DNA from: Bilabrum cf. latius
Lineage: Eukaryota
Assembly: GCA_965178125.1 (NCBI GenBank)
Contig: OZ237742.1
Coordinates: forward strand, 806,001 to 870,000
DNA length: 64,000 nucleotides
Direction: 5' to 3'
Positions within the stretch are counted from its first letter, which is position 1; each line of letters opens with the position of its first letter. The notes under the pieces are model-generated. The model did no database searches, was not told the origin of the DNA, and saw only the letters and a list, made by a program, of their open reading frames with translations. Shown in pieces: positions 2,715 through 64,000 of the stretch. The translations under genes and the position numbers were made by a program.

Positions 2715-4025
2715 TCACGGGGCCTCCTTGCCCTGTCTCCGTATCGAGGAAATCCCGTGGGTTGCAAGTCGGCCCGCCACAGCGCTGGCGGCAAGAGGCC
2801 CCGCAGCGTCAGATGAGTCGCGCACTCCCGCCTCGGCCTCCGTGCGGCTGCCAACATTCGAGGCTGCCGAATCGCGCACCAAGCTCCTGCCGCGCCCCTG
2901 CTTCCCATGCTCTGCATCTAGCCACTGAGAGATCGCAACATCCTGATCCGCCACCGCGCGCGCATGCAGCCCGCCGTCCGAAATGTTGCGTCGCTGCTTC
3001 ACAGACGATTTGGAGTCTATTTTCGGCGCGGTGGCTGGACCAAGCAGCGGTCCGGGCCCGGTACTGCTGCTGTCACCGGCGGCAGCAAACACTGTGCCGC
3101 TACCAGTAGTCTTGATGCCAGCGCCTTTGAAATGCCCTTGCCCGTGCCCATTTCCCTGCGACATTCGACTGGAATCGAACGGCACGTTGGTTCCTTTCCT
3201 CGGACCACACCCACAAAATGATAAAATGGGCCTGGCCAACCCAGAGACACACCGGCTCACGGCCGATTGCACCTCACCCAGCGGAGGACAAGGCAGCCAG
3301 GTGCACCTTTGCCTACGACTGCTGCGCTCCTTGCCAGACTATCGCTCTCGCGCCGCTAAAGCCCAGCCGCTTAGGTGCTGCCTCGCTGCATCCCCCGCTC
3401 CCTTTCTCGCCCTGTCAAATCTAGACATTGATTCTGCCAGCAGGTAGGCGAGCATTCCGACGCACACGTGCCAGCCGGAGTGCCACAGCCGAGCGAAGTC
3501 GTGCTCGTCGTCCAAACCTTTGACAAAGCAAGCAGCGGCAGCGACACCAACTAGGAGTGCTCCTCGAAAGGCCCACGGCACAATAACAGGTGCTTGCTTC
3601 TGGTAGCACCACCGGGCAGCGCAGACAAGCGCAGACGCTGCGATCGGCAGCACCGTCCATATCACCTCCCATGGGGCCCGCTCTTGCAGAACGACAATAA
3701 TCAGTCCGAAGATCCAACGAATTATTTCGTCCATCCTGGCATCGCTGTTCTGCATCAGTGCGATAGCTATCCCAACAAATGTGATTTGAGAAGTCACGTT
3801 GTCCAGTCGGTGCCAGGTTAGGGAGGTCATATCGGCAAATTCCCCACCAATTGTGTCTAAACTGTGGTATATTACACTAGTTATTACACTTGCAAGTCCA
3901 ATCACACATTCAGTTCGCCGGCCGTTGCGCCAGCCGAGCACAATCGCCGGCAGCATTGCTACATGAGACGCTACCGATGCGTAAAGCTGCATGTTGCGCT
4001 CGTACTCGGTCGTTGGCGGCCCCAT
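2715..4025 (-). CDS. TMEM8/myomaker-like (DUF3522, CREST superfamily) multi-TM protein with a low-complexity C-terminal tail
   Basis: SxxYH, D and HSxWH motifs with about 7 hydrophobic segments. TAG at 3339 reads into the same-frame ORF 2715-3272; ends TGA. Confidence 0.7.
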
Positions 4026-4176
4026 GCCTGAAATTCAATACATAGAGGAAGGGAGTTAATCCACACGTCGTTTCATGGACTTACGATGTTGCAAAAATGC
4101 AAGTGGACCTCTTTTCACGGCACTGCAGCGCTCCCGTCGAAATGACGGCCCGAAGTTGTAGGTCATTTACGTCAAG

Positions 4177-5679
4177 ATGATTGCGCTATCGGCATGCATC
4201 GCTCTACTAATCGGGTCAGCACGTGCTATTTTGAACGTACCTCATCGTGCTCGAGGGGGGAGACTGTTCCAAGAGCTTGGTGGATCAGCGATCATGAACG
4301 CAACCATGGCTGCCAAGACCTACACGCAGCAGCAAGATCACGGCGATCCGTCAAAAGGGTAGTATTAGTAGCGCTACTACGAGGATCTCTCAGTGTACAA
4401 CGCCAGCCGTGAGCCGATGTCTACGTCTTTCCCCGCGTACGCTCCCAGAAATACTGGCGATGCTGGAGCATGTTGTCCTTTTTGAGACTCTCTGCTCGCA
4501 GACGGCCCGCTCTTCGTGTACATTGGTGGAGAAGGTCCACTCGGCGGTACTCCAAGCGGCTATGTAATGAACATCGCGCGAGCTGTCGGTGCGGCGGTGG
4601 TTGCGATCGAGCACCGATTCTATGGGGAATCCATCCCTGGGGACAGCTTCGAATCGGACAACCTGAAGCTCCTAACAGTGGACCAGGCCCTCAAGGACGC
4701 CGCGACGTTCACCACCTGGTGGCGGCAGCAAAACAACTTCAAGGACAGCCAGCGAACCCTCGCGATCGGGGGGTCGTACCCAGGTGCCCTCGCGGCCTGG
4801 GCCAGGGTGGACCACCCCGACGTCTTCTACGCGGCGTGGTCCTCAAGCGGCGTGGTGGAGGCCAAGGAATCGTTCCCGGAGTTTGACGCACACGTCGCCG
4901 CCGCCCTGACGCGGGATGTGGATCCCGCCTGCCTGCCGACGATCAAGGCAACCATGGCTGCATTTGAAAAGGCCATGGTCGCGGGCGGGCAGGAAAAAGA
5001 CGATGTCAAGGCGCTCTTTGGCGCCGAGGATGTGGAAGACGATCGCGATTTCTACTACATGCTCGCCGACAGCGCCTCGATGGCCGTGCAGTACGGCACC
5101 AAACAGGCCATGTGCTAGGCTCTCAAGACCCACGGGCCCGACAGCGATCCCAGGGATCTCAGGGAACAATTCGCGGACTTCACAAACGACCACTACGGGC
5201 ACGACTTCGGGAGCGACTGCTTCTACGACACGTTCTGCCTCAAGCAGGAAAAGGACCGCTGGCAGCCCACCGCCCGCGCGTGGAGGTGGCAAAAGTGCCA
5301 CGAGCTCGCCTACTTCCAGGTGGCTCCCACCCAGGGGTCCATCCGTCCGGCCTCCGTGGACCTGGACTACCACCTGGAGCAGTGCAGGGAGGTGTTCCAA
5401 ATCGCCGACATGAGCCCATCGGTCGACGCCATCAACGCCCACTACGGCGGGGCTCGGCCCAAGACGGACCGTGTGATCGCTAGCGGTGGGGGAGACGACC
5501 CCTGGCTTGAGGTGTCCGTTCAGAAGACGCTCGGGCCCGAGTATCCGGAGGACACGGCGTGGTGCAACGGGTGCGGCCACTGCAAGGACCTGCACTCCCC
5601 TTCTGACAGCGACCTGCCGCCCACGCAGAAGCAGAGGCAGCTGGAGGCCGCGCGGATTCTCGAGTGGATGGACGCGTGA
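4177..5679 (+). CDS. Serine carboxypeptidase S28 family peptidase (secreted); intron 4409-4501
   Basis: Signal peptide, QDH...Y(Q)(Q)RYY, GPLFVYIGGEG, EHRFYGES, GGSYPG (catalytic Ser), DPW and HCKDL. In-frame TAGs at 4360, 4366, 4369 and 5116; ends TGA. Confidence 0.92.
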
Positions 5680-6110
5680 GAACGAGAAGGGCGACGAAAT
5701 GTTTTCGTAGCTAGCAATAAGACATGGATCTGATGAGTGCTTGGCTTCGTCCGGTTCACGTGCGGCTTTGCTTCGCTGCTTGCCGGCCGTGGCTCATTGT
5801 GCGTGCTAGCGCTAGCCAAGCCTTGTGGGCACATTTGGGAAACGCAATGCTTGGGGCGCACGCTCACTCCATGATACCTGAGACCGGACAATGGCTTTCT
5901 ATTTGCGAAACCACCACCTTCAGAGCTAGTCAAAGAGCTTTTCACCGAATCCATGCAGGTTGTTGCGCATCACATCACGGACCATTGGATGCCTCACTGC
6001 CTCTCCCGGAAGGCGAACAGGCCCGCCGTCCCGTTAGTTCATGCCCGACCGCAACGCTAATAGTAGTATCCCAGCGCAACACCCTGTTTTCCACTTCCCA
6101 GCAACGTGTC

Positions 6111-7090
6111 TCACTTGCCAGCGCCACCGCCGGAAGCCTGTGCGGCGACCGCCTCTGCCTTCTTCTTGGCCTCCTCTGCGTCTCCCAGGTAATAGTGCTT
6201 GATCGGCTTGAGATCCTCGTCGAGCTCATACACGAGAGGCACGCCTGTGGGAATGTTGAGGCCCGTGATGTCCTCCTCGCTGACGTCGTCGAGCATCTTG
6301 ACGAGTGCCCTGAGGGAGTTGCCGTGCGCCGCGATGAGGATCTTCTCGCCGGCCTTGATCTTCGGCGCGATCTCGTCCTCCCACACGGGCATGAACCGCT
6401 CGCCCGTCAGCTTGAGGCTCTCGGCCGCGGGCAGCAGCTTTGGATCAACCCCATTGTACTTCTCCTCGTGGGACGGGTGCCGCTCGTCGGACGTCTCTAG
6501 AGATGGGGGCGGGGTGGCGTAGCTCCGCCGCCAGACGTGCACCTGCTCTTTTCCGTGTTTTTCTGCGGTTTCGGCTTTGTTCAATCCTTGAAGGGCTCCG
6601 TAGTGGCGCTCATTCAGCCTCCAGGTGCGCTCCACGGGGATCCACATCTGGTCTGTTTCTTCCAGCACATGCCACAGCGTGCCAATGGCTCTTTTGAGGA
6701 CAGACGTGTACGCTCTGTCAAACTTGTAGTCACCTTCTTTGAGGAGCTTTCCAGCCTGTACGGCTTCCTGGTGCCCGAGCTCGGTGAGGGCGGCGTCGTG
6801 CCATCCCTGCAAAGGCAGACGAGATTCAGCCAGCAGCAGCTAGTGTTGGCACAACGGAGGCCAGTAGAAAAATCTTTCACAGCAGTGTTCATCATGCTAG
6901 TGGCGTGGTGTGTATCGCAGTAAAGCACAGGCGGGAGTGGAAACATGGAAAGGATAGCGACTGGTAGGTGATTGGAGATTCGATCAGCTTCACTCACGCA
7001 AAACCTGTTGGATTCGTTGTAGACCGACTGGCCATGGCGCACCAACACGAGCTTAAATACCTTTCCATCGGATTTGCCAGCAGATGCCAT
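6111..7090 (-). CDS. PGAM: 2,3-bisphosphoglycerate-dependent phosphoglycerate mutase; intron ~6809-7000
   Basis: [39 protein letters not shown] and [14 protein letters not shown] motifs. No internal TAG; ends TGA. Confidence 0.95.
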
Positions 7091-7322
7091 CTTCAGCCTC
7101 AGCGTATGGAGCAACAATTCCTGACTTCGTGGCGATGGATCTTCTTCCGGTGTTTTCCCGGCTCGCGGGTGTGATGACGACCAACGATTGCAGGCTGATG
7201 TGTTGTGCAGTGCGTGTCTAAAATAGAAGCTTTATGCAGCAAAAAATGCCCTGCCTCATTGTCTAGAACCAGCTCCCGATACCATTGCTAGCCTACCCGC
7301 TTGCAGCTGTCTCAAGTGGCAG

Positions 7323-10300
7323 TCATGGCAGAGCACCCGACCCCGTAGTCGCAGAACCGTCCCCCACAGCCGATGCCCCGACAGCAGAAGGCACCACCGA
7401 CCCACCGTCTAGCCCGCCTGCTCTCATGCCCCCACCCACGGCCGAGAGCCCAGAAGGCTTCAGGAACGTGGAGCCCCCGGAACCGCCCCCCTATTGCTGG
7501 GACGGCGATGCGCCGCGGCCGCCAGCACCTGCCCTTGCGGAACCGGAACCGGCGCCGCGCGCTCCCACGAGGCTGTCTCGGGGCAGGCTGGCAGAGCTGT
7601 GACGGTCATCTGCCACAGAGCCTGGGCCGTCAGGCAGGAGCTCATTGATCCCGGGCCCGCCCACGACAGGCGACATGGGCGCCCCGCTGATCTCCGAAGG
7701 TGTCTCCATGTGGGCGACGGTCAGGGGGCCTCCCCCCGGGGGCGCCATTGCGCCTACCGGTGGTGGAGGCCGCATGGCGTCCTCGCCGGTGGGCGGTTCC
7801 GCTGTTGCACCAGCACCAGCACCAGCACCTGCAGCGTTGATGGCAAGCATCGCTGTGGGCAGCGGCCCCCTGACCGCGGGATACCTGACGGCAGAGGCGC
7901 TCTGGCTCGCGGCGCTGGCGCTGTCGTCCATCGCGTGGGGGGAAGACGCGAGACCCGCCACCACGTCGGCGTCGGGGACTCCGACGCCGGATGCCTCAGA
8001 ACCGCGAACGAAAGGGTCAGTCACGTGCACTGCACTCGTCACACCGGCACCGCTGCTCCCACTCGCAACTCCGGCAGAGGCTCGGGCGGGCGGCGGTGGG
8101 GGCGCCATTGCTACTGCTTGCTGCTGCTAAACAGCCGAACTAGAGGCCGTGTGCCCAGCGGTTTGCGCCTCCGCCGCTCGCGCCACCCTGCTCGACACGA
8201 CGGCTGGTGCTGCTGATGCCCAGGGCTGCAGCTGGCTCGAACCTACGTGGGCGCCAGAAGCACCCGATACCACGCTCACGCCGCCGATACCCCCGGGCAG
8301 CTATCCTTGAATCGTAGGCACCTGCATACCCTGCTGGATTGGGCCAGCGTTCACAGAAATTGTCCCTGCTACCATAGGTATACTCGACTGGGGCACCGGA
8401 CCGTGTCCAACTGTAGGAACTTCAATTTCATGGCTGCTGTGCCTTGGTGACAGCAGGGCAGGCGTGCTCGCCGTTGGTGTGCCGGCCGGGTAGCTGCTGC
8501 CAGGGACCGTCCCGGTGACTGCGGTGGCGGCCTGGTCTGCGCGACTGGAGCCGGCTAGAGCCTGGGATGAATCGCCGGTCCTTGGGGCTTTCGCATTCCT
8601 TCCGCCAGAATCGCCAGACGCGATCGGGGGGGGTACCTGGTCGGTTTCCCTCGGCCGTTTGGATCCCACGCGGTGGTGCTTGCTGCTGCTGCTGCTGCTG
8701 CTGCTCCTGCCACTGCTGCCGTGCTTCTTGCCGCCGCGCGACGATGATGATGACCCATGCCTACCTCTCCCGCTTGCCTTCCCACTGCTGCTGCCACTCT
8801 TCCTCTTCAGCAGGTGCGGAGCCAGCGCCTGCGCCTGCAGCTTGAGCGTGTCGTTCTGTGCCGCCAGCGCACCCAGCGCCTTGTTCATTAGCTCGGTGTC
8901 CTTTCTGGCAGCAACTGCGTCTTCTTCCATGCGACGGATGGCAGCAGTGGCGTGAGATATAGCGCGAGCTGCAGCCAACGCGGCCTGTCCCGCAGCCACC
9001 GCGGCACTTTGGGCGGCAGCCGGATCCATCTGGTGAGAGTCCGGTGCTGACGACCTGCTGCTGTCGTCTGGAATGCTGGCATCGAGCTGCATACCGTGCT
9101 CGTTCCACCGCGTGCTGTGCCCGGCTTGGCTGGTGCTGCCCCTCCTCGACCTGCTCCTGCTGCCGCCCCTGCTACGCTTCGAGCTGCCCTTGCCCGACGG
9201 CCCGCCGGTGCCTGTGGTAGAGTCAGACTTGACGGACCCGCGGCGGGAGCTTCGGCTGCGATGAGTTCCGCGGCCAGACCGCCTCGAGCTGCCACGCGAG
9301 CTGCGGCCACTTGACCTCCCGTCCTAATCCTCGTCCTCGTCCTCGTTCTCGTCTGCCTCGTTGCTGGAAGCGCCCCGACTGCGGCTCCTGCTCCTGCTCC
9401 TGCTCCTGGTTACCGGGCCCTGCTGCCTGTTGGCGTTTGCTTCCTTGCCGATGGACCCGTCCGTGGCGCGGCGACTCCCAGACGCGTGGGTGCTCGGGTG
9501 GCCGCCTGCTCCGCTCTCCGCGGCGCTGCCACCCGCAGTGCTGTTCTCGGCCTTGCCTCCGGATCCCAAGTGCCGCGGCGTCATGGCCGTGCTGACCGAT
9601 GGCCCGTCCCCACCAACCGACCCGCCGCCGATGACCAGCGATTCGGCGCCCGTGGCAGAGGATGCCAGCCTGGCCTGTAGATCGCTGGTACCCGTCAATC
9701 TCCTGGGGAGCTCTGCGCCGCCCCTGCCCCGGGATCCCCTGGAAGCCGCGCCATCGCTTGTCTGGTGCGCGGAAGACGCGGCGTCCGAATTCCCGCCAGC
9801 AGCGGCCGTGTGCGCAGCAATGATCGCCTGCGTCGCATCCACGGCCGCCGAGTTGCACAGGCTTTCCACCGCTCCGGGCGCGCCCGCGAGGGCAGCCGAC
9901 ACCCTGGATGCAGCCATGTCCCTGGCCCTAGCCTGCACATAGTCCTGCACCGCCTGGGACCTCGTGTCTCTAGAGCCCGTGTTGTGGGAGCCAGTGCCAC
10001 GAGTGGACGAGGAAGCTTGTGACGCGGTTCCTGCGGCCCCCGTCTCCACGTCAGGTAGGATGTCTGGCCCCGCGCTGTTGATGGCCTGGTTCATCGCATC
10101 GAGCTCGGCGACCGCTCTGTTCAAAGTCTCCGCGGGGTGAGCGCCGACCGCTCTCACCACCTCTACGGCGGCTTGTCTCACGGCCACGGCGGCCGCAGCC
10201 ACCTGTCGCTTCGCCTCCGTGGCCATGTCTTCCGTTGCCATGGAGGAGGCCGCCCCGCCCGACCTCTCGCTCGTGCTCATCCTGTCCTTGAGCTCCGCAG

Positions 10301-13300
10301 CACCGCCGATGCCCTGGCTCTCTAGGAGTCCTAGCGCCCCGTGGATGTTCTGCTGAGCAGCCTGAGGGTTCCTGCCAGACGACATCAGGTCTGCCGGTGG
10401 TGGAGCGGGGGCAGGCGACGGTATCTCGCCCCTTGCCTCCACGCCGACGATCACGGGGGGCGCGCTCCCCGCCCCGCTGTCGGTGGTGCCGCCCTCGCTA
10501 GCAGCCGCGATGGATTTCGCCGGCTCGGAAGGCACTGCCATGGACACGCTCCCTGCCGCAACGGCTCTTCCAGAGCTGCCGCCTCCTGAATTTGAGGCGT
10601 CGGCTTCTTCGCTTCGCCTGCTTCCACGCCATGAGGCATCAGCGGACGGGTCGCTGCCGCTGCCGCCCTCCTTCTTGTCGCTGCCATCATCGTCCCGCAT
10701 GGGCACCTAGCCCCCTGCGGCACCGCCGGACTGCTCTTTTCGTGCGCCAGAGTCCTTGGACCCTCTTCGACTGCGTGAGCTCCGAGTCGATCGTCGTGCC
10801 GAACCAGTCGAGCCAGAACGTGTCCTTGTGCTAGGTCCGGCAGCATGTGAACGCTCTGTGCCCTCAAGCACGTCATTTTTCGCATCTTGCTATGTGTTTG
10901 CGGCGTTGCTGGAGGACTCCGCTGCAGCAGACGACGCCGAGGATGATGAAGAAGTGGGCTGCTTATCCTACCCGCTCGAGCCCTCCATACGCTGCTGCCC
11001 TGCCTGCTTGCCGTTCCCTCCCTTAGGTGCAGGGCCTGCAGCATCGCTCTCCTGCTGCTGCTGCGCTCTTGAGTTGCTGTGCCCTTCCGGCGGACTGCAG
11101 CTCCGCAGGTCTGCCACATTGACCATCATGCTAGAGGCGCCCCCGTCCACGACAGCCTGCAGACTGCCGTCTTTCATGGTCAGTCTGAGCTGGATGTCGA
11201 TGGGCAAGCTGACCGTCGTGCCATTGTAGTCTAGCTTGATAGCCAGCGGCATCGTCGTGGCGGTCGAGTTGGCCGCTGCCTCCGAGCTGGAGGTGGATCG
11301 AGCCACGCTGGCGGCGAGCTGCTGCTGCAGACCTTGCTGCAAAGCCTGCTGAAGTATGGGCTGCGGGATGACCGGGGCCGGCCCCGTGGAACTCTCTCCG
11401 CTCGCCGTAGGAGACTGTGCAGAGAGCCCCCCTGCGTGCAGCGTTGCCTCCGTGGGGTCGTGTCCGGGGGGCAGCTCCTGCTCCTGCTACCTCTGCGGCG
11501 CCTCTAGCGCGGACCGTCTCTCATCCAAGGCAGAGCCGTCCGCGGCGCTCATGTAGTCAGGAATGGCGCCCTCTGCGGCAAGCTGCGGCGTAACTTGAGA
11601 GCTTGCGTCGTGTCTCTGGTTCTGGTGCTGCCCCTGCCCGGCCCTTCTAGCGGCAGATCTGTGTTCCCCGAACGAGTCCACAGACACAGCCAAGTCGGGG
11701 ATCTCCTGGTGCATGGCTCCAGACCCGCGAGTGCGGTGGTGCATCTGCTGCTGTATCTAGTACTGCTACATCTGACGGTTCCCTTGGACAGATCTCCCTG
11801 GTGGCATGCGCACGCGGCCGCTAAACGTGCCAGCACGCGCACCTACTTGCTGTAGCTGTCGAAACTGCCCTTGCCCTTGCCCCTGCTGTCCCTGTGGCCT
11901 CGGAACGGCATGCTGTTGGTGTGCTAGGCCTCTGGAGTCCCCTGAGTTCTCGCGAGGAGACATGCGCTCCTGCTGCTGCTGCTGCTGCTAACCGCCATTG
12001 TTCCCTGCGGCCGCATCCAGCCTTGAGAGGGGTCTCCCGTCGCGTGCCTTACTGGCGGAGTGTCCCGTGCCGTCTGCCTTTCTGTGCTTGCCCAGAGACA
12101 GCAGCACTTCCGATGCCACTGTGTCATCGTCACCACCCTCTTCCTGCCCGCCAGGTCCCCCAGAATTCTGACCGTGCGGCTAGCTGTGTGATGGATGCTG
12201 CGGTTGCAGTGAGACCCCCTGTCGCTGGGGCTGGAAGCGCTGCTGCTGCCGCTGCTGCTGCTGCTGCTGCTGCTGCCCAGCGTTCCTGGTCATGATTTGA
12301 TCTGGCGGCGGAAGCGATGCCGGCAAGGAGTGCAGATCATCTAAAATGCCCAACTGCGATCCACCCGCGCCCCTGGACCCCATCCCATTTCCATTTCCAT
12401 TTCCAATACCATTCCCATTTCCGGTGCCGATCTGCCCGTAACCATGGCCCATGTTAGGGGGAAATGGTCCCGCCGCTGCCCCGCCAACCCTCCCTTCCTG
12501 CCCGAGCATCGAGCCACCCGCGACAGCTCCCTGCATCCCAGAGTGAAGGCTTCCTGGCGCCATGGGTGAGGCCGATGCGGAGGCCGATGCGGAGCTCTGC
12601 ATGGCCGGGACATACGGGCCCTGGGTGGCAGCACCCATGGGCGGGGACTGAGAGAACACAGTATGGCTGACGGAGACGCCGCCCCCCATCCCAGCCCCCG
12701 CACTCCCGTGCCCGCTCATACTCATACCGCTGTGCCCTGCCGCTGTCTGGGGCACTGATGACCTCCTTGGGGGGAGGGGGCCTGGCGCCCCTACCAACTG
12801 CCCGATGCTGCTGCTGCTGCTGCTGCCGGACGTGTGGGGTCCGCTGCCGCTGCTAGTGAGATCCCCGCTTGTGGAGACGCCTTGGGTAGGCTCGAACATG
12901 CCCCCGTTCATGTCCCCGCCCCTGTGCCTCCCATCCATCATGCCAAGGGGCAACTGCTCCTGCTGCATCATCCCTCCCGTTCCTGCTCCCGCATCCATGG
13001 CCCATCGAGTTGGGCTCTGACCAGAGGAGGACCTGCCAGCCTCCTGATGCTGATGCTGGGCCATGGCCATCGAGCCAGCCTCCTGATGCTGATGCTGGGC
13101 CATGGCCATCGAGGCTGCGGCCTGGAAATGATGCTGAGTGAATTGGGCCGGGTGAGAGGAGCTTCGTTGCATCGCATTGCCGCGCTGGTAGGGCTGTTGC
13201 CCCGCGGGATACCCTCGGTGAGTCGAGTGGTACTGGGCTGCTGAGAGCCTCCCCTGCGCCAATACCTGCTGGCCTCCCTGCGCCTGTGGGGGTCCATCGT

Positions 13301-14442
13301 GCAGCCCGTGCACGAGGTGCGCCTGCATGAGCGCCGGGCTGTTCCCCCCTCCCTGCGCTCCGCCTCCCGGAGCGCCCAGGGTCGGCCCAGACGGCCAGCC
13401 AGCCATGCCGCCTGCCGGTGCTCGCACACGCGGAGGATGCCGCACCGCTTCAGAGGGCCCGAGCAGTGCCGCGTTGGATGAAGATGAGGACATGGCGTGC
13501 ACGGCAGCGGCTTCTAGGATGCCGGCACGGCCAAGCGGCTGGCTTGCAGGGAGGCCGGCGAATCCTCCAGGCTGCAAGCCAGATACTCCGGGGCTACCGG
13601 CAAGTCCCATCGGCGAAGGAGCTGGCTTTCTGGCTGAGGTTTTCGATCCAGAAGCGGCTGCAATGTGTAGGGGGGTCGATGCCGTCGCATAGAATCGAAG
13701 CGTCAGCCATTCGCACGTTGCACCACAGGCACCAAAGGAATCCCGGGACGGAACAACGCCAGTCTCTTACCTTGCAGTCGTTTCTTGCCAGTTTGGTTCG
13801 TTTTGCGAACCACAAGACAAAGAAGGTCTGGCTTCCCTTGCAAGAAGGAGGGATGAGCGTACTCATACCGTCCCGTCTTGACCTTTGGATCCCCAACCCG
13901 CTCAAAGCTGCGATAAGGGGTATGCGTAGTAGGACGAATAGTATAATGAATGCACCACGAAACGCGTGTGGCCCTCTGATGCTCCCGAGCATGGCTGCGA
14001 CGTCCAATGCAAGTAAATCCCGCCCAGGTCGACCGTTCGCGGCCAACATATCAGCTCATATACAAGCAATATACACAGTCTCGTTGACTCCTTGGTACAA
14101 TCGCACTGCATCTGTAAAAACTTACCAGTAGAAGTTCAGCTGCCTTGTAAACGAGCTAAATTGCCGATGACTGTAGTACTTTGGGAGGACGACCGAGCTG
14201 AATTGCTTGCGATCTTCTATTACAAACGACTAGCCACCCTGACCCCAGTGAACAAGATTATCGCAATCATGATCATCAACTAAACTGTACAGTGACCTGA
14301 GAAATGCAGACACGGGCCTGTGTGTCAGCTTGGGTACGGCTTCGGCTGAGATGACCGATGGCCCCCCGGCACCTTTATCGTCCCCTGCTTGGCTACTGGA
14401 TCCGCCTGATCTTTTTGATGATTTTCGACTCCTAGTAGGCAT
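7323..14442 (-). CDS. Heat-shock-factor-type DNA-binding domain protein with a very long Gln/Gly/Ser-rich C-terminus (~2,300 aa); intron ~13908-14126
   Basis: AFLRSLY...VHWGQGG(TAG)SFVI...LPKYYSHRQFSSFTRQLNFY|.FER...EYAHPSF.QGKPDLL..VVRK. Downstream ORFs ending at 12180, 11766, 11487, 10968, 9324, 8301 and 7491 are all in one frame and separated only by TAG. First TGA is at 7323-7325. Confidence 0.8.
13036..13113. repeat. 39-bp tandem duplication in the HSF CDS (SMAMAQHQHQEAG x2)
   Basis: ccagcctcctgatgctgatgctgggccatggccatcgag occurs twice in a row. Confidence 0.85.
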
Positions 14443-16080: not shown

Positions 16081-19000
16081 TTATGCGGGGCCAATGGCAC
16101 CCATCTACTCGGCTGCTATGACGCCGGGCATGGACTGGATGAACTGGACTGCCCGAGGAATGGCTTGTCGGGCCCTTGCGAGCTCCACAGCCCGCCGGCG
16201 AGCGGTTGACCGGTGCGGCTTCCACCCAGGCCGGGGCCGACTTGCCTCCGATAGTTGTGGCGTTGGCAAGCGCCCAAGGTGGAGTGAGTGCCTGGGCTTC
16301 TCCGTGTTTGCGGAGCTCGGTCCCTCGGCATACGGGACCCCTGCATGCTACTGGTGACCATAGGGTTGTGAGCCGAGCCCTCCACCCCCTCCCACTCCCA
16401 TCATGTTTCCCTTGCTATCAAGTTTGGCCGCAATCGCTGGAATGGGGCCTCGGGTCGAGTAAAGAATAGAGCGGGGCCTCGCCTAGCCTCGCAGCATGTC
16501 CTTGTAGATCTAGGCTCCCGCACTCGTCATATTAGGAAGCACAAGCGTTCGTTCCTGCTTCCTGTGCTTGACAATAGCCTCGCAGTCGCTCTTGCGCTTC
16601 CTTGCTGCTTCCAGCCCGCGGCGATACCTCACCTTGAGGTCCTCGACGCCCCAGTGAGCCATGCCGCCGCGGATGAGCTGCTGGTCCGCCCGACGAGCCG
16701 CCGCTTTCTCCTTTGACAGCGTCTGAGTTGCTTCATCCATCCGTGTTCCGTGTCTCCCCTGCAGCTGGTGCGACCGCAGCATGGCTGCCCTGCCCTTTGA
16801 TGCCAAGTAGGAGCCGCTCGCGTGCATGCCACCTACGGGCAATCCCAGCGAGTCGTAAACAAGCGCAGTCAGGCCGGTGTGGATCGCTCGTCTAGGACTG
16901 TGCTTTGACGCGCTGTGCGCGCCTGACTCACGACGGCTTGATCTGCTGGGCAACCACCTGGTCCTGTGCCTGTCGCCATGGAAAAGTCCAGGCATCAAGA
17001 GCGGTGAGCCCAGAGCATGGACGGCATCGAGCGCATTGGCAGCATCGAGCGCAGAATCGGTCTCCCAGCCTGAATCATCCTATTGATCGGTATCCGAGAT
17101 GGGGGACAGGCCGCTCCCAGCCTTGTCCATTGCATTAACTCGTTGTGGTTGCTGCTCCTTCGGTTGGCGACTCTGCGACGGCAGCCGAATGTCTCTCTGC
17201 GACATGGCGTGCTCTGTGGTACCGAGCAAGAGGCCGTGCCTCGAATGCCGTATGCTCGATGTGATCCCGTAGTTGCTCCCTGCCTGCATCGCATTGGCTT
17301 GTTGAGGCGCAAGGCACTCCTGCTCGCTCATGTGTCCGGGTTTGTGATGCACGCTTGGTGCTACTGGAGCTGTAAGCAACCCGTGGGAGCCTCCCGCGAT
17401 GCCACTCGCGGAGCCGTTGTCTTTTCGGTTCAGACCAATGCGCGCCTCTGGCTATGATCGTCCTTCATTGGTAATACCATGCAGCTCATCGCGTGCGCTA
17501 TCCCTGCCCTAGCTGTTACCTTCGCTTCCAGAGTCGCTGGCGCCGATGTCAATGTCTGGCAGAGCATCGCCAGACCCGGGGATCGGAAGCAGCGAAGGGG
17601 AGGAAGCCATCCGTTTCCGCACGAAGGGGACACGCGCACCACCGGAGCGCGATATTTCAGGACTGCCGCTCTCTGTGTCAGAGAACATTGAGCCGACCGT
17701 AGATGATCTGCTCCTGCTGCTTCGCATTGGCGAGACCGGCCTCATCTGCCGAACTGCGTTCAGTGCTGCAAGCGCGATGGGATTACTGACAGCACTGAGC
17801 CTTCGCACGTTCTTGCTCAAGTGCTTTGCATTGAGTGCCTTTGTCTTTCGAACAGACCCTGCATCGCTTCCGTTGTTGCCGTCAAAGTCGAGTGACGGAA
17901 GGCTGGCAATAGATCTACTTGGCAGGCTTCCTACGGATCCGAGCCTACGCCTGCCAACGTGCACGTGTACGAGCTGCTGGGGAGGAGAATCGTGGCTTGT
18001 GTCGCCCACGGCCTAGATTCCTAGGGGGTCGGACCGGTGGAGTAGGCCGTGGGGCTGTCGACCCAGCACGAATCCGCTGTGTCTGCGAGTACGTGGATTC
18101 GATCGCAGCTGACGTGCAGCAACAGCAGTAGCATCAGGAGGTGCAGGTGCATGATTGGCTCCACGGGGCCTTTCCGCCCGTGCACCATCGATGCTACGAG
18201 GAGAATCGTGGCTTGTGTCGCCCACGGCCTAGATTCCTAAGGGGTCGGACCGGTGAAGTAGGCCGTGGGGCTGTCGACCCAGCACGAATCCGCTGTGTCT
18301 GCGGGTACGTGGATTCGATGGCAGCTGGCGTGCAGCAACAGCAGCAGGTGCAGGTGCATGATTGGCTCCACAGGGCCCTTCCACCCATGCACCATCGCTG
18401 CTACTGCTTGAGCTTGCTGAACTGGACCTGTACGTTGGCAGAGGTTGATTTTGTCTTCCTGGAACACGAATCTTAGACGGCGGGGATATGCGAAGAACGC
18501 CGGGCGATCCCACAGGTGACGCGTCGTTCTAATGCGTCAAACCGCTAGTACCCTCCTCGATGCCACAGGCGGTGGCAAATGCTGCTGGCTATTGTACCTC
18601 TGCTGCTGTTTGATCTGTCGCCCCATCCATGCGGTCTTGCCTCCCTTCTCCATTCGATTTCGTCGTTGCCGCGCTACTGCTCGAATCGACGCTGGACCTG
18701 TTGCTCTCTGCGGTCCCAGCAGCTTTACGTCCCTCTGTTTTGCTTGCAGGTGCGTCCCGTACCGAGCTAGAACCACCAACCGCGCAATGCACGTCTCCGA
18801 TTTGAGGTCGTCGGGCTGGCTTGAATCCCGGGGGTGCTTCAATCGTGCGCCTGCGCGGCTCCGTTGACCTCTTCCTAGCTACTGACTCGCTAGATGCCTG
18901 AGGGTCAAAGCCAGTGAACGCATCGATAGCATCATCACCAGCCAAGGGCTCGCAGTCCAGCAGTCTGCTTGCTTTCAGGGTTCCCTGGTCGTCAGCAATC

Positions 19001-48098: not shown

Positions 48099-49206
48099 TC
48101 ACGTGCCTTTGCTCCCGCCGGCACTGGCGCCCATCCCGAAGCTGTCTTTGGCCCGCCGCAGCGCCGCCACGACCTCCACGTCAGTGGCCCCTTCCTTCGC
48201 GCCAACGAACTTTCTGACGGCCGCACTGCGCGGCCGCAGGAACGGGTTTGTGGCGAGCTCTTGTGCGAGGGTCGAGGGCACCGTTGGCTTCCCCTCCTTC
48301 CTTGCTGTTGCGACCGCTTCCGCCCGCTCCTACAGAGCCTTGTTCCCTGGCTCCACCGCCGTTGCAAAACGAACGTTCGCCTCCGTGTACTCGTGCCCCA
48401 CCCAAACCCTGGTGGATGACGGGGGGCCGGCCTGGGCGATGACACCCAGGAGAGAGTGAGCGAGCTCTTCGGGCGATCCTCCTTTGTTTACGCGCCCGCA
48501 GCCGCAGACAAACAGAGAGTCCCCGGTAAACAGGTCGACGCTGTCTGTACCTGCCGCAGGTTTGCTGCTTCCGTCATCAGCACCGGCTGCCTCACCCTCA
48601 GGCTTGGCCTCTTCGTCGCCGACAGCACCCCCGGTCGCGGCCCCGCTGCCATCCTCACCTGCTCCACCCTCTCCCTCTTCGGCGCTAGATTCTTTGGTCC
48701 GAACGGCATAGCAAATGTGGCCTCTGGTGTGAAACGGCGTGTGCAGTGCAGTAACTCGAATGTTTGGCGACAGGTCGAACACGTCGCCATGCCGAACTGC
48801 TTTCGAAAGCGCTGGAACGCTGTCCTCTGAGCCACCGATTACCTCCAACTTCCAGCCGCGGTCAGCTTCACACTACTTCACAAGCTCTTCATTGCCACCG
48901 GCATGGTCCCAGTGATCATGCGTTGTGAGAATGTGGGTGAGCTTGCAGCCGACCGCATCAGCCGCAGCCAGCACTGTAGCGGGCTCAACTGGGTCGACAA
49001 CAGCAGCAATTTTTAAATATTCATCATATACTGTGACGCTAAATTACCAACGCACGCAGAGAGGATACCAGACAGTAAGCGTGAAAAAAGTAGATCGACA
49101 GCAAGCATGGCGTGCATCGGCGCATACTTATGCACGATGAAGCCCACGCGAACTCACTGAGGTATCCGTAGTTATCCTTTAGCATGGGAATCGTACTTAT
49201 TTTCAT
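48099..49206 (-). CDS. HAGH: Hydroxyacylglutathione hydrolase (glyoxalase II); intron 49031-49157
   Basis: [64 protein letters not shown] and PSTL..E..TNPFLR. TAGs at 48873 and 48330; ends TGA. Confidence 0.93.
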
Positions 49207-55263: not shown

Positions 55264-55425
55264 GGCTAGTGGGCAGGCGAAATTCTGTCGCCTTGTGCGG
55301 GTATACTGCTTCTGGCATGTTTCGTCGGAAAAATCAGTTTTCTTTTTTGTAGTGTGTCATTCGTCACTTGAAATTCAAGTATCCAACAATTGTACATTTC
55401 TCGTCTCTCTGAAGACATATCCACA

Positions 55426-57282
<1,857 letters not shown>

Positions 57283-57476
57283 AGACTGCGCGTTTCGAGG
57301 TCGGGGAGTGGGAGGGAGGAGGGGTGCGCTGCGCTCTGTTCGTATGTGGATGATGATACGTCTTGTTTCGTTTAGTCCCGCGCCAACAAATTGAGAGATT
57401 GCCGGCTGCACCGGTGTGAAGGTTCGCCATGCAAGGTGTGGCGACAACACGAACCACCGACACGTCACCCGATAGC

Positions 57477-60783: not shown

Positions 60784-61255
60784 TTGATTGAGTTGTTGCC
60801 ATAGCCTGCAACCACTAATGCAACTTCACCTGGTAGCTTTCAAATCTCCGACATTACTGCCACGTAAGCAAGGTCCGCCGATCTCAGACCTCATCGCGTC
60901 ACCCATTTCTTTGTGTCAGCTTTGTCAGGCCCACCAAGCCAGATACGACAGCTCGGCGGTAAATGCACGCAACAACGCCGAGCGGAGCGAGCAACCCGAG
61001 CCGTCCGGAACACACACCACTCGCAGAAGCCAAATCAGAGACTGTGAGTGTACAAGAAACGATTTCGATTCGTATCATTCGATTTGGTCTGAATGCGCAA
61101 TCTGTTGCCTCGAATCGAATCACAGTGGAATAGAGATGATCTGCTGCGACTTGATGATGCTCGCTCCTCGCCGATCCTCGCAGTGCCTGTGTTATCCCAC
61201 CACAGGCAAGCTACTTGCGATCGCGTCCTTGTCACGTTGTCGAAATAGCATCATC

Positions 61256-62464
61256 ATGCGGATCGGCATCAACACTCTAGCCCGACACGCCGGTCGACGG
61301 ATGGCTCAAGCAATCAAGGGCAGGACACCAAGCGGCATGATGATGATGCCTCGCCAGCTCTGCATGCGGTCCATCGCCGGATCGGCCAGAGCTCTCCATA
61401 CCATTGACACGCCCCAGCATGACCCGCACACCGAGCCACATCTAGACTCGCAAGACGCCCAAAGCCCGGTCGTCGACCTCCCAAGCCCAGGCAGCCAGGA
61501 CCACGTGATGCAGGCGGCCAGCCAGGCCCTGGACTCCCTGCAAGAGGCATCAGCCAGCGCCAGCGAGGCTGTGGCACGCATGGATGCATTCGTCGCCGCC
61601 GCCGAGACAGCCGCGCCCGCCCATCAGGCGCTGGCGGCGGCCGAGGAGGCGGTGCGGGCGTCGATGAAATGCATGGAGCTGGACGGGAAGGCGAGCATGG
61701 CGGTTGATCCAGGTGCGGCCAGCTCTGTGGGCCAGTATGTGGATGCGCTGGGCCCGGCGGAGGATGCGCTGAGGCAGGTGCGTGCGTCGGCAGAGAAGGC
61801 GGGCGCTGCTGCGGATGCGATGCTTCGTCACATGGAGGGTCTGGGCATGGAGGCGAGCCGGGCGGCGGGGGAGGAGGCCGGCAGGGGGGTGCTGTCTTGG
61901 GAAGATGGGGACGAGGATGAGAAGGAAAAGGTAGAAGATATCATATTCGATAAAATCTATCACCGACTAGAAGTGAAGTGCGAGCAGCAGGGATACGCGT
62001 GCGGTCTCATGGCGTCAAGCGAGGAGGATGCCATGTCCGCAGGGTCTGATATTGGCGATGAGCTGTCATGCGCAGACATAGATGAAACATCATGTGACGT
62101 TGGAGAAGAGCTGGGAGAGAAGGAGGGCGCCAAGCTGGGATGGGAGGCCGGGTTCAGGGTCGGAGGGTACGTGGGTGGCGAGATCGGCAGGCGGGCGGGA
62201 GCAAAGGCTGGCACTGAGCATGGCAGTGAAGTAGCATACAACATCGCTTCCGATCACTTCGATGGAAGTGACAATACATGTATGGGCGAAGCAAGTGGGT
62301 GGGCCTAGGAAGGCTTTCTGGACAAGCAGGGCAAGGACAAGGCGTGGCTGGCGCAGCTGTGCAAGGACAAGCCGTGGCTGGATTACAAAGAGATTGTGTG
62401 GTATTGGGATGAGCAGGAGAGAGAAGAGAAGCAGTCCGAGGAAGCCCCGTCCAAGGAAGCGTGA
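61256..62464 (+). CDS. Unknown Ala-rich protein, copy 1, with a presequence-like N-terminus
   Basis: Open frame with an Arg-rich, acid-free N-terminus. TAG at 62306 reads through to TGA 62462-62464. A paralogous copy lies 1,894 bp downstream. Confidence 0.6.
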
Positions 62465-63149
62465 TGGGCTCACTGGCACCTTGGGATGCAGCAGCCTGCG
62501 TTCCATGACCGGTCTTGCACTGGCCAATTCTGTACAATGTGGTAAACTACTCGCCATCCTTGCCCGAGCAAGGTCCCTCGATCTAGCACCTCACCACCTC
62601 ACCCATAGCCACAGCATATCAGCGGCCTACTCCCTCCACCTGCTGGTGGTGTGTGCCAGAGGCAGGCCCTCAGCGCCTCGACTTGTTGAGTGCACACGGG
62701 ACGCCAAGGACATGGAGGAGGAGGATGATACCCTTGCAGGGCTGAGGCTGGTCATTGCTAGCCACTGTGCAGCCGCGCCAGTGCCAGTCCGCATCAGGCT
62801 CACCGGCCAGGCCGGGACCAGCCAGCCAGCCAGGCAGTCCAACAGCTCGGCGGTAAATGCACGCAACAACGCCGAGCGGAGCGAGGTCCTCGAGCCGTCC
62901 CGAACACACACCACTGGCAGAAGCCAAACCAGAGACTGTGAGTGTACAAGAAACGATTTCGATTCATATCATTCGATTTGGTCTGAATGCTCCATCTGTT
63001 GCCTAGAATCGAATCACAGTTGAATAGAGATGATCTGCTGCGACTTGATGATGCTCGCTCCTCGCCGATCCTCGCAGTGCCTGTGTTATCCCACCACAGG
63101 CAAGCTACTTGCGATCGCGTCCTTGTCACGTTGTCGAAATAGCATCATC

Positions 63150-64000
63150 ATGCGGATCGGCATCGACACTCTAGCCCGACACGCCGGTCGAAGGATGGCT
63201 CAAGCAATCAAGGGCAGGACAGCCAGCGGCATGATGATGATGCCTCGCCAGCTCTGCATGCGGTCCATCGCCGGATCGGCCAGAGCTCTCCATACCATTG
63301 ACACGCCCCAGCATGACCCGCACACCGAGCCACATCTAGACTCGCAAGACGCCCAAAGCCCGGTCGTCGACCTCCCAAGCCCAGGCAGCCAGGACCACGT
63401 GATGCAGGCGGCCAGCCAGGCCCTGGGCTCCCTGCAAGAGGCATCAGCCAGCGCCAGCGAGGCTGTGGCACGCATGGATGCATTCGTCGCCGCCGCCGAG
63501 ACAGCCGCGCCCGCCCATCAGGCGCTGGCGGCGGCCGAGGAGGCGGTGCGGGCGTCGATGAAATGCATGGAGCTGGACGGGAAGGCGAGCATGGCGGTTG
63601 ATCCAGGTGCGGCCAGCTCTGTGGGCCAGTATGTGGATGCGCTGGGCCCGGCGGAGGATGCGCTGAGGCAGGTGCGTGCGTCGGCAGAGAAGGCGGGCGC
63701 TGCTGCGGATGCGATGCTTCGTCACATGGAGGGTCTGGGCATGGAGGCGAGCCGGGCGGCGGGGGAGGAGGCCGGCAGTGGGGTGCTGTCTTGGGAAGAT
63801 GGGGACGAGGATGAGAAGGAAAAGGTAGAGGAAGAAATCAATTCAGCAATTAACGATGTATTGATGCTCAAATGCGAGCAGCGAGGATACGAGTGCGGTC
63901 TCATGACGTCAAACGTGTTTCATGCCTAGGATATTGGGTCTGATATTGGCGACCAGCTGTCATGCGCAGACATAGATGAAACATCATGTGAGGTAGGAAG
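63150..64000 (+). CDS. Unknown Ala-rich protein, copy 2 (runs off the window)
   Basis: Near-identical to copy 1. After TAG 63927 the frame continues DIGSDIGDQLSCADIDETSCEVG, matching copy 1 GSDIGDELSCADIDETSCDVG. Confidence 0.65.

Follow-up and report, generated by a model that had tools for sequence, protein, structure and literature searches.

UAG as a sense codon, most likely for glutamine, in an S28 peptidase gene and other long genes of a GC-rich eukaryotic DNA stretch

Introduction

Nuclear genetic codes in which UAG and UAA differ in meaning are known from only a handful of lineages (PMC5304391, PMC11687900). Reassignment of UAG alone is described there for the rhizarian exLh (to Leu) and for Iotanema spirale, a member of the Fornicata (to Gln; PMC5304391), as well as for Protocruzia tuzeti and some phyllopharyngean ciliates (to Gln and Leu; PMC11687900). 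In Iotanema, PMC5304391 puts TAG at about 8% of the Gln codons. In Scotinosphaera sp. (Ulvophyceae), TAG has become a Ser codon and TAA and TGA serve as stops, as stated in PMC8271138 and PMC11687900.

Codes in which UAG and UAA (i.e., UAR) both specify Gln (table 6) occur in many ciliates, hexamitid diplomonads, the Dasycladales, Cladophorales and Trentepohliales, Streblomastix and Amoeboaphelidium. The presumed route to these codes is a mutated tRNA-Gln. Amoeboaphelidium protococcarum is listed as a UAR-to-Gln organism in PMC5304391, and Amoeboaphelidium genomes have a G+C content of ~40% (PMC10608142, Table 1).

Here we describe a stretch of DNA, 64 kb in length and analysed as a whole (hereafter, the window), that very probably belongs to the nuclear genome of an intron-poor eukaryote with a high G+C content, in which UAG has passed from stop to Gln while UAA and UGA still terminate. 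The window resembles Iotanema, Protocruzia and the phyllopharyngeans (the table 15 pattern) in that UAG is translated, with Gln as its best supported meaning, and UAA and UGA serve as stops; if TAG is Gln, it makes up ~12% of the Gln codons here (94 of 782), compared with the about 8% reported for Iotanema. Set against ciliates, the window is, by our judgement, un-ciliate-like, with 60% G+C, long intron-poor genes and ordinary introns. It shares with Scotinosphaera a split UAR pair and a sense TAG, and one TAG site is occupied by S in a relative; it differs in that Gln is favored over Ser by 7.3 to 11.7 natural-log units, and in that an S28 column holding one of the TAGs is Q in most homologues. 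Like the UAR-to-Gln codes it turns a stop into Gln, but TAA is no sense codon here. Like the UAG-to-Leu codes of exLh and some phyllopharyngeans, it reassigns UAG only and keeps UAA as a stop, whereas Leu scores 11.9 bits under Gln in seven Pfam models.

The kind of code is already known, and the lineage may be new to a code in which UAG alone is Gln. A GC-rich, non-ciliate lineage with UAG read as Gln was not found in the literature searched, in which subscription journals were thinly covered. Amoeboaphelidium was considered as the source of the DNA and rejected, its G+C content being 40% against 60% here. The best named homologues of the window's proteins are scattered among oomycetes (S28 peptidase, about 46% identical), Mallomonas (RBBP4-like protein, 48%), and Pigoraptor and Chromera (glyoxalase II, HAGH).

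Results

TAG is read as sense across the window, with TAA and TGA as stops

When all three standard stops are applied, the longest open reading frame (ORF) of the window is 587 aa, yet once TAG is freed, ORFs of 2147, 2037, 1716, 1211 and 1101 aa emerge. Freeing TAA alone leaves the longest ORF at 587 aa, and no long ORF gains. In total, 94 TAGs occur in frame among the 15,766 codons of 19 long coding segments (0.6%), a count close to those seen off frame (123 and 98). A set of 19 long ORFs is terminated by TGA in 13 cases and by TAA in six. Across 22 TGA-delimited ORFs with a minimum length of 450 aa, no TAA lay further than about 150 codons from an end, and one TAA pair stands between a cyclic-nucleotide-binding (cNMP) domain ORF and a methyltransferase ORF that share a frame. 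Several Pfam domains run across TAGs (S28, HAGH_C, Sugar_tr, ER_lumen_recept, Ank and cNMP_binding), with homology carrying on in frame on both sides of the TAG inside conserved domains. These findings establish, with near certainty, that TAG is translated throughout the window. They also define the variant as the rarer, UAG-only one rather than UAR: TAA was tested for the same behavior and is not a sense codon in the window.

Could TAG be ambiguous instead, serving as sense inside genes and as terminator at some gene ends, or being merely read through inefficiently? Context-dependent codes are known in Condylostoma, Blastocrithidia and karyorelictids, and two of the 19 ORFs, encoding a phosphate transporter and the cNMP protein, carry a TAG 6 or 7 codons before their TAA or TGA. 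At a frequency of 0.6%, however, ~0.8 near-terminal TAGs are expected, so that two represent no excess, and TAA or TGA closes every long ORF examined. Moreover, a series of 94 internal TAGs, with up to 19 in a single ORF and three within four codons, would presumably be impassable by readthrough. We therefore regard an ambiguous TAG as very unlikely, and a sense TAG with TAA and TGA as the stops as the reading to be carried forward.

The window as a whole is ~60% G+C. Its genes are long and poor in introns, and two introns with GT..AG ends measure 93 and 191 nt. As a separate matter of composition, TAA is strongly under-represented on the two strands together (408 occurrences, 1017 expected from base composition), and the corresponding whole-window counts are 949 for TAG and 1642 for TGA, with 1531 expected for each. 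The coordinates of the genes and features discussed below are given in Table 1.

Table 1. Positions of the S28 peptidase gene, other TAG-bearing genes and neighbouring features in the window
Feature	Position	Strand	Basis
Exon 1, S28 peptidase gene	4177..4408	+	Translation; exon end set by contig joints 4408->4502 in X5, X6, X7
TAG TAT TAG TAG, protein residues 62, 64 and 65 after splicing	4360..4371	+	Sequence and spliced contigs
Spliceosomal intron, 93 nt, GT..AG, phase 1, in-frame TGA 4483-4485	4409..4501	+	Contig joints
Exon 2, S28 peptidase gene, stop TGA 5677-5679	4502..5679	+	Pfam PF05577, exon residues 1-380
Fourth in-frame TAG, residue 283, within S28 domain	5117..5119	+	Variable column; contigs unchanged
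Cofactor-dependent phosphoglycerate mutase gene, convergent to S28 gene	6114-7231	-	
Mutase intron, 191 nt, GT..AG on minus strand	6806-6996	-	Joined in X5, X7 contigs
2147-aa Q/S/G-rich ORF, 12 in-frame TAGs, several beside poly-Q	7326..13766	-	
1716-aa cyclic-nucleotide-binding-domain ORF, 19 in-frame TAGs, ends TAA	16084..21231	-	
Internal direct repeat of the 1716-aa ORF, ~210 nt, 90.7% identical	17982-18404	-	
Tandem array, 30-nt period, nearly perfect, (AAEEEAAAKK)n in 626-aa ORF ending TAA	39202-40021	+	
Glyoxalase II (HAGH) ORF, TAGs at residues 57 (48873-48875) and 238 (48330-48332)	48102..49043	-	Pfam HAGH_C, Lactamase_B
RBBP4/CAF1-p48-like WD40 gene, at least three exons, one in-frame TAG	55300-57400	+	
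Tandem duplication, ~1.16 kb, 94.5% identity, ORF of no known family	60948-62104 / 62842-63998	+	

The S28 peptidase gene is intact and retains its TAGs in spliced form

Read directly from the + strand, positions 4354-4380 run AAA GGG TAG TAT TAG TAG CGC TAC TAC. This bears out the observation from which the analysis started, made in a sequence-only reading of this DNA, that three TAGs fall within four codons (KG-stop-Y-stop-stop-RYY). The three TAGs (at 4360-4362, 4366-4368 and 4369-4371) are all in frame with the start ATG at 4177, and exon 1 also encodes an N-terminus resembling a signal peptide, as well as the DH...(T)(F/Y)xQRY motif, the T position of which is a TAG. Exon 2 alone matches Pfam Peptidase_S28 (PF05577) with E=3.7e-63 and 214.3 bits (cut-off 25), covering profile positions 29-433 of 434. 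Exon 1 alone matched no Pfam family, and the motif was therefore assessed on our own homologue alignment rather than on the Pfam S28 model suggested in the sequence-only reading; a 37-aa piece containing the motif had no match among solved structures at E values up to 10. With a profile match above the curated cut-off and both the N-terminal motif and the core residues present, the protein is a full-length member of the S28 family (PF05577).

The intron was predicted from the sequence first and then compared with contigs of the sequencing runs X1, X5, X6 and X7 (out of 14 runs found), mapped to positions 4000-7300. One contig each of X5, X6 and X7, which come from two studies, joins 4408 to 4502 and skips the 93 nt bounded by GT..AG, whereas X1, a DNA-type run, has the unspliced form and covers the whole stretch without a joint. 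That X5-X7 are RNA is a guess, as no run is recorded as RNA and X6 is marked 'probably DNA'. The joined contigs span 4197-4408, 4175-4408 and 4199-4408 without a single differing letter, so that all three motif TAGs are unchanged in them, and the TAG at 5117-5119 is likewise unchanged in contigs of X5, X6 and X7. This comparison was made on contigs, which lose rare variants, and not on raw reads. Splicing-out of 4360-4371, which the sequence-only reading had named as the observation that would overturn it, is contradicted by the spliced contigs, as they keep the stretch unchanged. TAG is kept in the mature mRNA, neither spliced out nor edited, and the gene is expressed, the RNA label of the supporting runs being a guess in both statements.

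Under the standard code the S28 gene is interrupted four times, as would be the case for a pseudogene, for an assembly or sequencing error, or for TAGs that are removed by splicing or RNA editing. Nevertheless, run X1 agrees letter for letter with the contigs in which X5, X6 and X7 are spliced, where only 4409-4501 is skipped, and the spliced protein retains 81 of the 83 columns that are conserved at 90% or more among 102 homologues. The same pattern of internal TAGs extends across all long ORFs of the window, and a protein fragment of a relative stops exactly at a shared TAG position (see below). That the TAGs are untranslated is, on this evidence, exceedingly improbable. The gene is intact, not a decaying pseudogene, and the conserved residues that it retains presumably include the catalytic triad.

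The S28 motif places one TAG in a conserved Gln column

The motif was compared with 102 S28 homologues with lengths of 430 aa or more, taken from 120 listed, in a MAFFT alignment in which it is ungapped. Where the protein under study has an ordinary codon it largely follows the family: its D and H stand in columns that are D in 94 and H in 82 of the 102 homologues, its R66 and Y67 in columns that are R in 81 and Y in 83, and its Y63 in a column that is F in 88. The TAG-bearing columns are of unequal value. The residue 65 column is Q in 90 of 102, with S, K and E all outside the five commonest residues; in the residue 64 column Q is the commonest (36 of 102), followed by K (17) and R (8); the residue 62 column is T in 82 and Q in two; and the residue 283 column is variable (D 31, S 28 and A 9 of 102).

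The codon before RYY does, then, lie in the near-invariant Q column to which the sequence-only reading had assigned it. The further equation of the two consecutive TAGs with QQ is well supported at residue 65 and fairly at residue 64. As for the broader proposition that the three TAGs identify the amino acid as Gln, Gln is indeed the best supported candidate, but the three TAGs alone are insufficient, one of them standing in a T column and only one being strongly diagnostic. Three points were absent from that reading, i.e., the first TAG in the T column, TAA as a continuing stop, and Ser as an alternative. Residue 65 is the one TAG site in a strongly conserved Gln column, and the verdict on the amino acid, including the log-odds result below, depends heavily on it. 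With TAG as Gln, the motif would read G-Q-Y-Q-Q-R-Y-Y.

A triple TAG within four codons arose in 0.9% of 20,000 random placements of 94 TAGs over the 15,766 codons, and in 10% of shuffles in which the TAGs were drawn at random from the 782 Gln-type positions. Given the latter frequency, the cluster is unremarkable once TAG is a Gln codon.

Log-odds scoring and poly-Q context favor Gln

TAG sites in the other genes are less telling about the encoded residue. In HAGH, the residue 238 column has Q as its commonest residue (34 of 150, followed by A 26, R 23 and K 21), while the column of residue 57 varies (L 30, R 22, Q 9). The TAG site of the RBBP4-like gene is variable as well (A 8 and P 4 of 19). 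Both TAGs of a METTL6-like gene lie in an insertion, outside the part that aligns to solved METTL6, and the TAG sites of the KDEL-receptor-like and phosphate-transporter genes correspond to L and K in solved structures, at variable positions.

Profile hidden Markov models were built from homologues only, and the emissions were taken at seven TAG-aligned match states. Over these seven TAGs in three genes, raw emissions without background correction gave Gln 0.79 and Ala 0.21; this raw-emission likelihood was replaced by log-odds scoring. Four more regions, with about five TAG sites in domain envelopes, were scored against Pfam with TAG translated in turn as 16 different amino acids (all but C, F, I and M); the whole-protein bits carry some noise from TAGs outside the envelopes. 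The summed Pfam bits were 327.7 for E, 327.1 for Q, 326.7 for K, 326.2 for R, 325.1 for T, 324.1 for S, 322.3 for A, 321.2 for L and 316.6 for G, and Q, E and K are indistinguishable over these five Pfam-only sites. The combined log-odds over ~12 sites gave Gln a posterior of 0.92 under default entropy weighting, where K received 0.04 and E 0.03, and of 0.9998 without entropy weighting.

The sequence context of TAG points the same way. TAG is the codon most enriched beside runs of at least three CAG or CAA codons (two of 30 flanks, 10.7-fold, p=0.015), as exemplified in the 2147-aa ORF by GG-TAG-QQQQQQ and AV-TAG-QQQ. Similarly, the frequency of Gln neighbors is 0.077 for TAG and 0.073 for CAA, compared with a background of 0.044.

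Database proteins of relatives speak mildly against Gln, in that the residues aligned to TAG sites include no Q. A ~90% identical relative has D at the site of S28 residue 283 (fragment P0002) and S at residue 1880 of the 2147-aa ORF, which is the AV-TAG-QQQ site, a third site falling in a gap; a 62% identical relative has R at HAGH residue 238. For the 2147-aa ORF, only two proteins of the relative were found (P0122 and P0123), providing one informative TAG site (the S) and one in a gap. The two relative sites shift the odds ~7-fold towards Ser by a rough estimate, far below the 7 to 12 natural-log units in favor of Gln. Some of these fragments are informative in where they end. P0144 (89% identical) ends at HAGH residue 237, directly before the TAG at residue 238, and this TAG is therefore common to the relative. 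P0122 ends just before a CAG of the window (Gln 1811), which fits a TAG in the relative, though a contig end is possible, and it was not counted; the window codon that follows the end of P0123 is GAG and that after P0002 is GAC, and neither was counted as evidence of TAG. A metagenome scan with the S28 protein yielded 29 loci, the best of them 41% identical, and no close relative for a codon-by-codon comparison.

A sense TAG might conceivably specify an amino acid other than Gln, with Ser as the leading candidate, followed by Lys and Glu. Ser has a precedent in the green alga Scotinosphaera, where TAG is Ser and TAA and TGA are stops (PMC8271138), and it occupies the AV-TAG-QQQ site in the close relative; S is also frequent at S28 residue 283 (28 of 102), and residue 62 stands in a T column. 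Glu and Lys score level with Gln over the five Pfam-scored sites. Against these candidates stand the residue 65 column of the S28 motif and the combined log-odds relative to Gln, in natural-log units: -7.3 (default) and -11.7 (without entropy weighting) for Ser, -3.1 and -13.0 for Lys, and -3.5 and -12.3 for Glu. Leu, Tyr and Trp fall 9 to 12 bits under Gln in seven Pfam models. In addition, the codon most enriched beside poly-Q is TAG, and no codon for Ser, Lys or Glu. We consider a different amino acid improbable, and Gln very probably the meaning of TAG, an assignment that is firm only with the log-odds scoring, the five further Pfam-scored sites and the poly-Q context taken into account.

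A putative mechanism and its implications

A code in which UAG alone is read as Gln could be accounted for by a tRNA with the anticodon CUA, one base from that of tRNA-Gln(CUG), that would be charged with Gln and decode UAG. Since CUA pairs with UAG only, UAA would remain a stop, and this would be accompanied by an eRF1 in which recognition of UAG is lost or weakened and that of UAA and UGA is kept. The reasoning on a CUA tRNA and a retained UAA agrees with PMC11687900. The stop-codon specificity of eRF1 is set by motifs of its N-domain, in the NIKS, YxCxxxF and GTS regions. In the window itself, a scan for tRNA genes found none, an Rfam scan at gathering thresholds had no matches, and a Pfam scan of 33 long ORFs produced no eRF1 match.

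Whether the window represents a lineage outside the ciliates and fornicates in which UAG alone became Gln, with UAA and UGA as stops, is a tentative proposal, to which we give somewhat less than even weight. If true, it would constitute a further independent origin of the rare UAG/UAA split, in a GC-rich genome with assembled DNA and transcript data, from which one could directly read the tRNA(CUA) at work and how eRF1 has changed to tell UAG and UAA apart. Each new case informs on how UAG and UAA become uncoupled and how eRF1 discriminates between the two.

The practical consequences are considerable, as annotation with the standard code would break most long genes, with about one break per 170 codons at a TAG frequency of 0.6%. 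This effect is visible in the fragmentary database proteins of the relative (P0002, P0122, P0123 and P0144). Gene calling here should use TAG as sense (Gln), and TAA and TGA as stops.

Further features of the window

Several other features of the window were recorded in the course of the analysis. The RBBP4/CAF1-p48-like gene is unusually divergent, its best database match being 48% identical (Mallomonas). Each copy of the direct repeat within the 1716-aa cNMP-domain ORF has a TAG at the corresponding place (DPLGI-TAG-AVGD). In the ~1.16-kb tandem duplication, the second copy of which is cut by the window end, the sole TAG stands opposite an ATG, in a diverged patch, and so says nothing about the encoded residue. 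The only Pfam match of the 626-aa ORF that contains the 30-nt array is to the low-complexity HC2 family.

Downstream of the S28 gene, one X6 contig runs through to 6326, past the stop of the phosphoglycerate mutase gene, such that the genes may overlap at their 3' ends. In each of the four runs, contigs have loose ends at 6291, 6340 or 6777 (window positions 6271-6340 and 6777-6798), and a 44-nt piece at 6297-6340 has a very high depth, from 128 to 1000. In this region a 39-kb X1 contig matches two 21-22-nt pieces only (within 6271-6340 and 6777-6798). It looks as though a second, highly expressed copy of the phosphoglycerate mutase gene lies elsewhere in the genome and shares short identical stretches with the one in the window.
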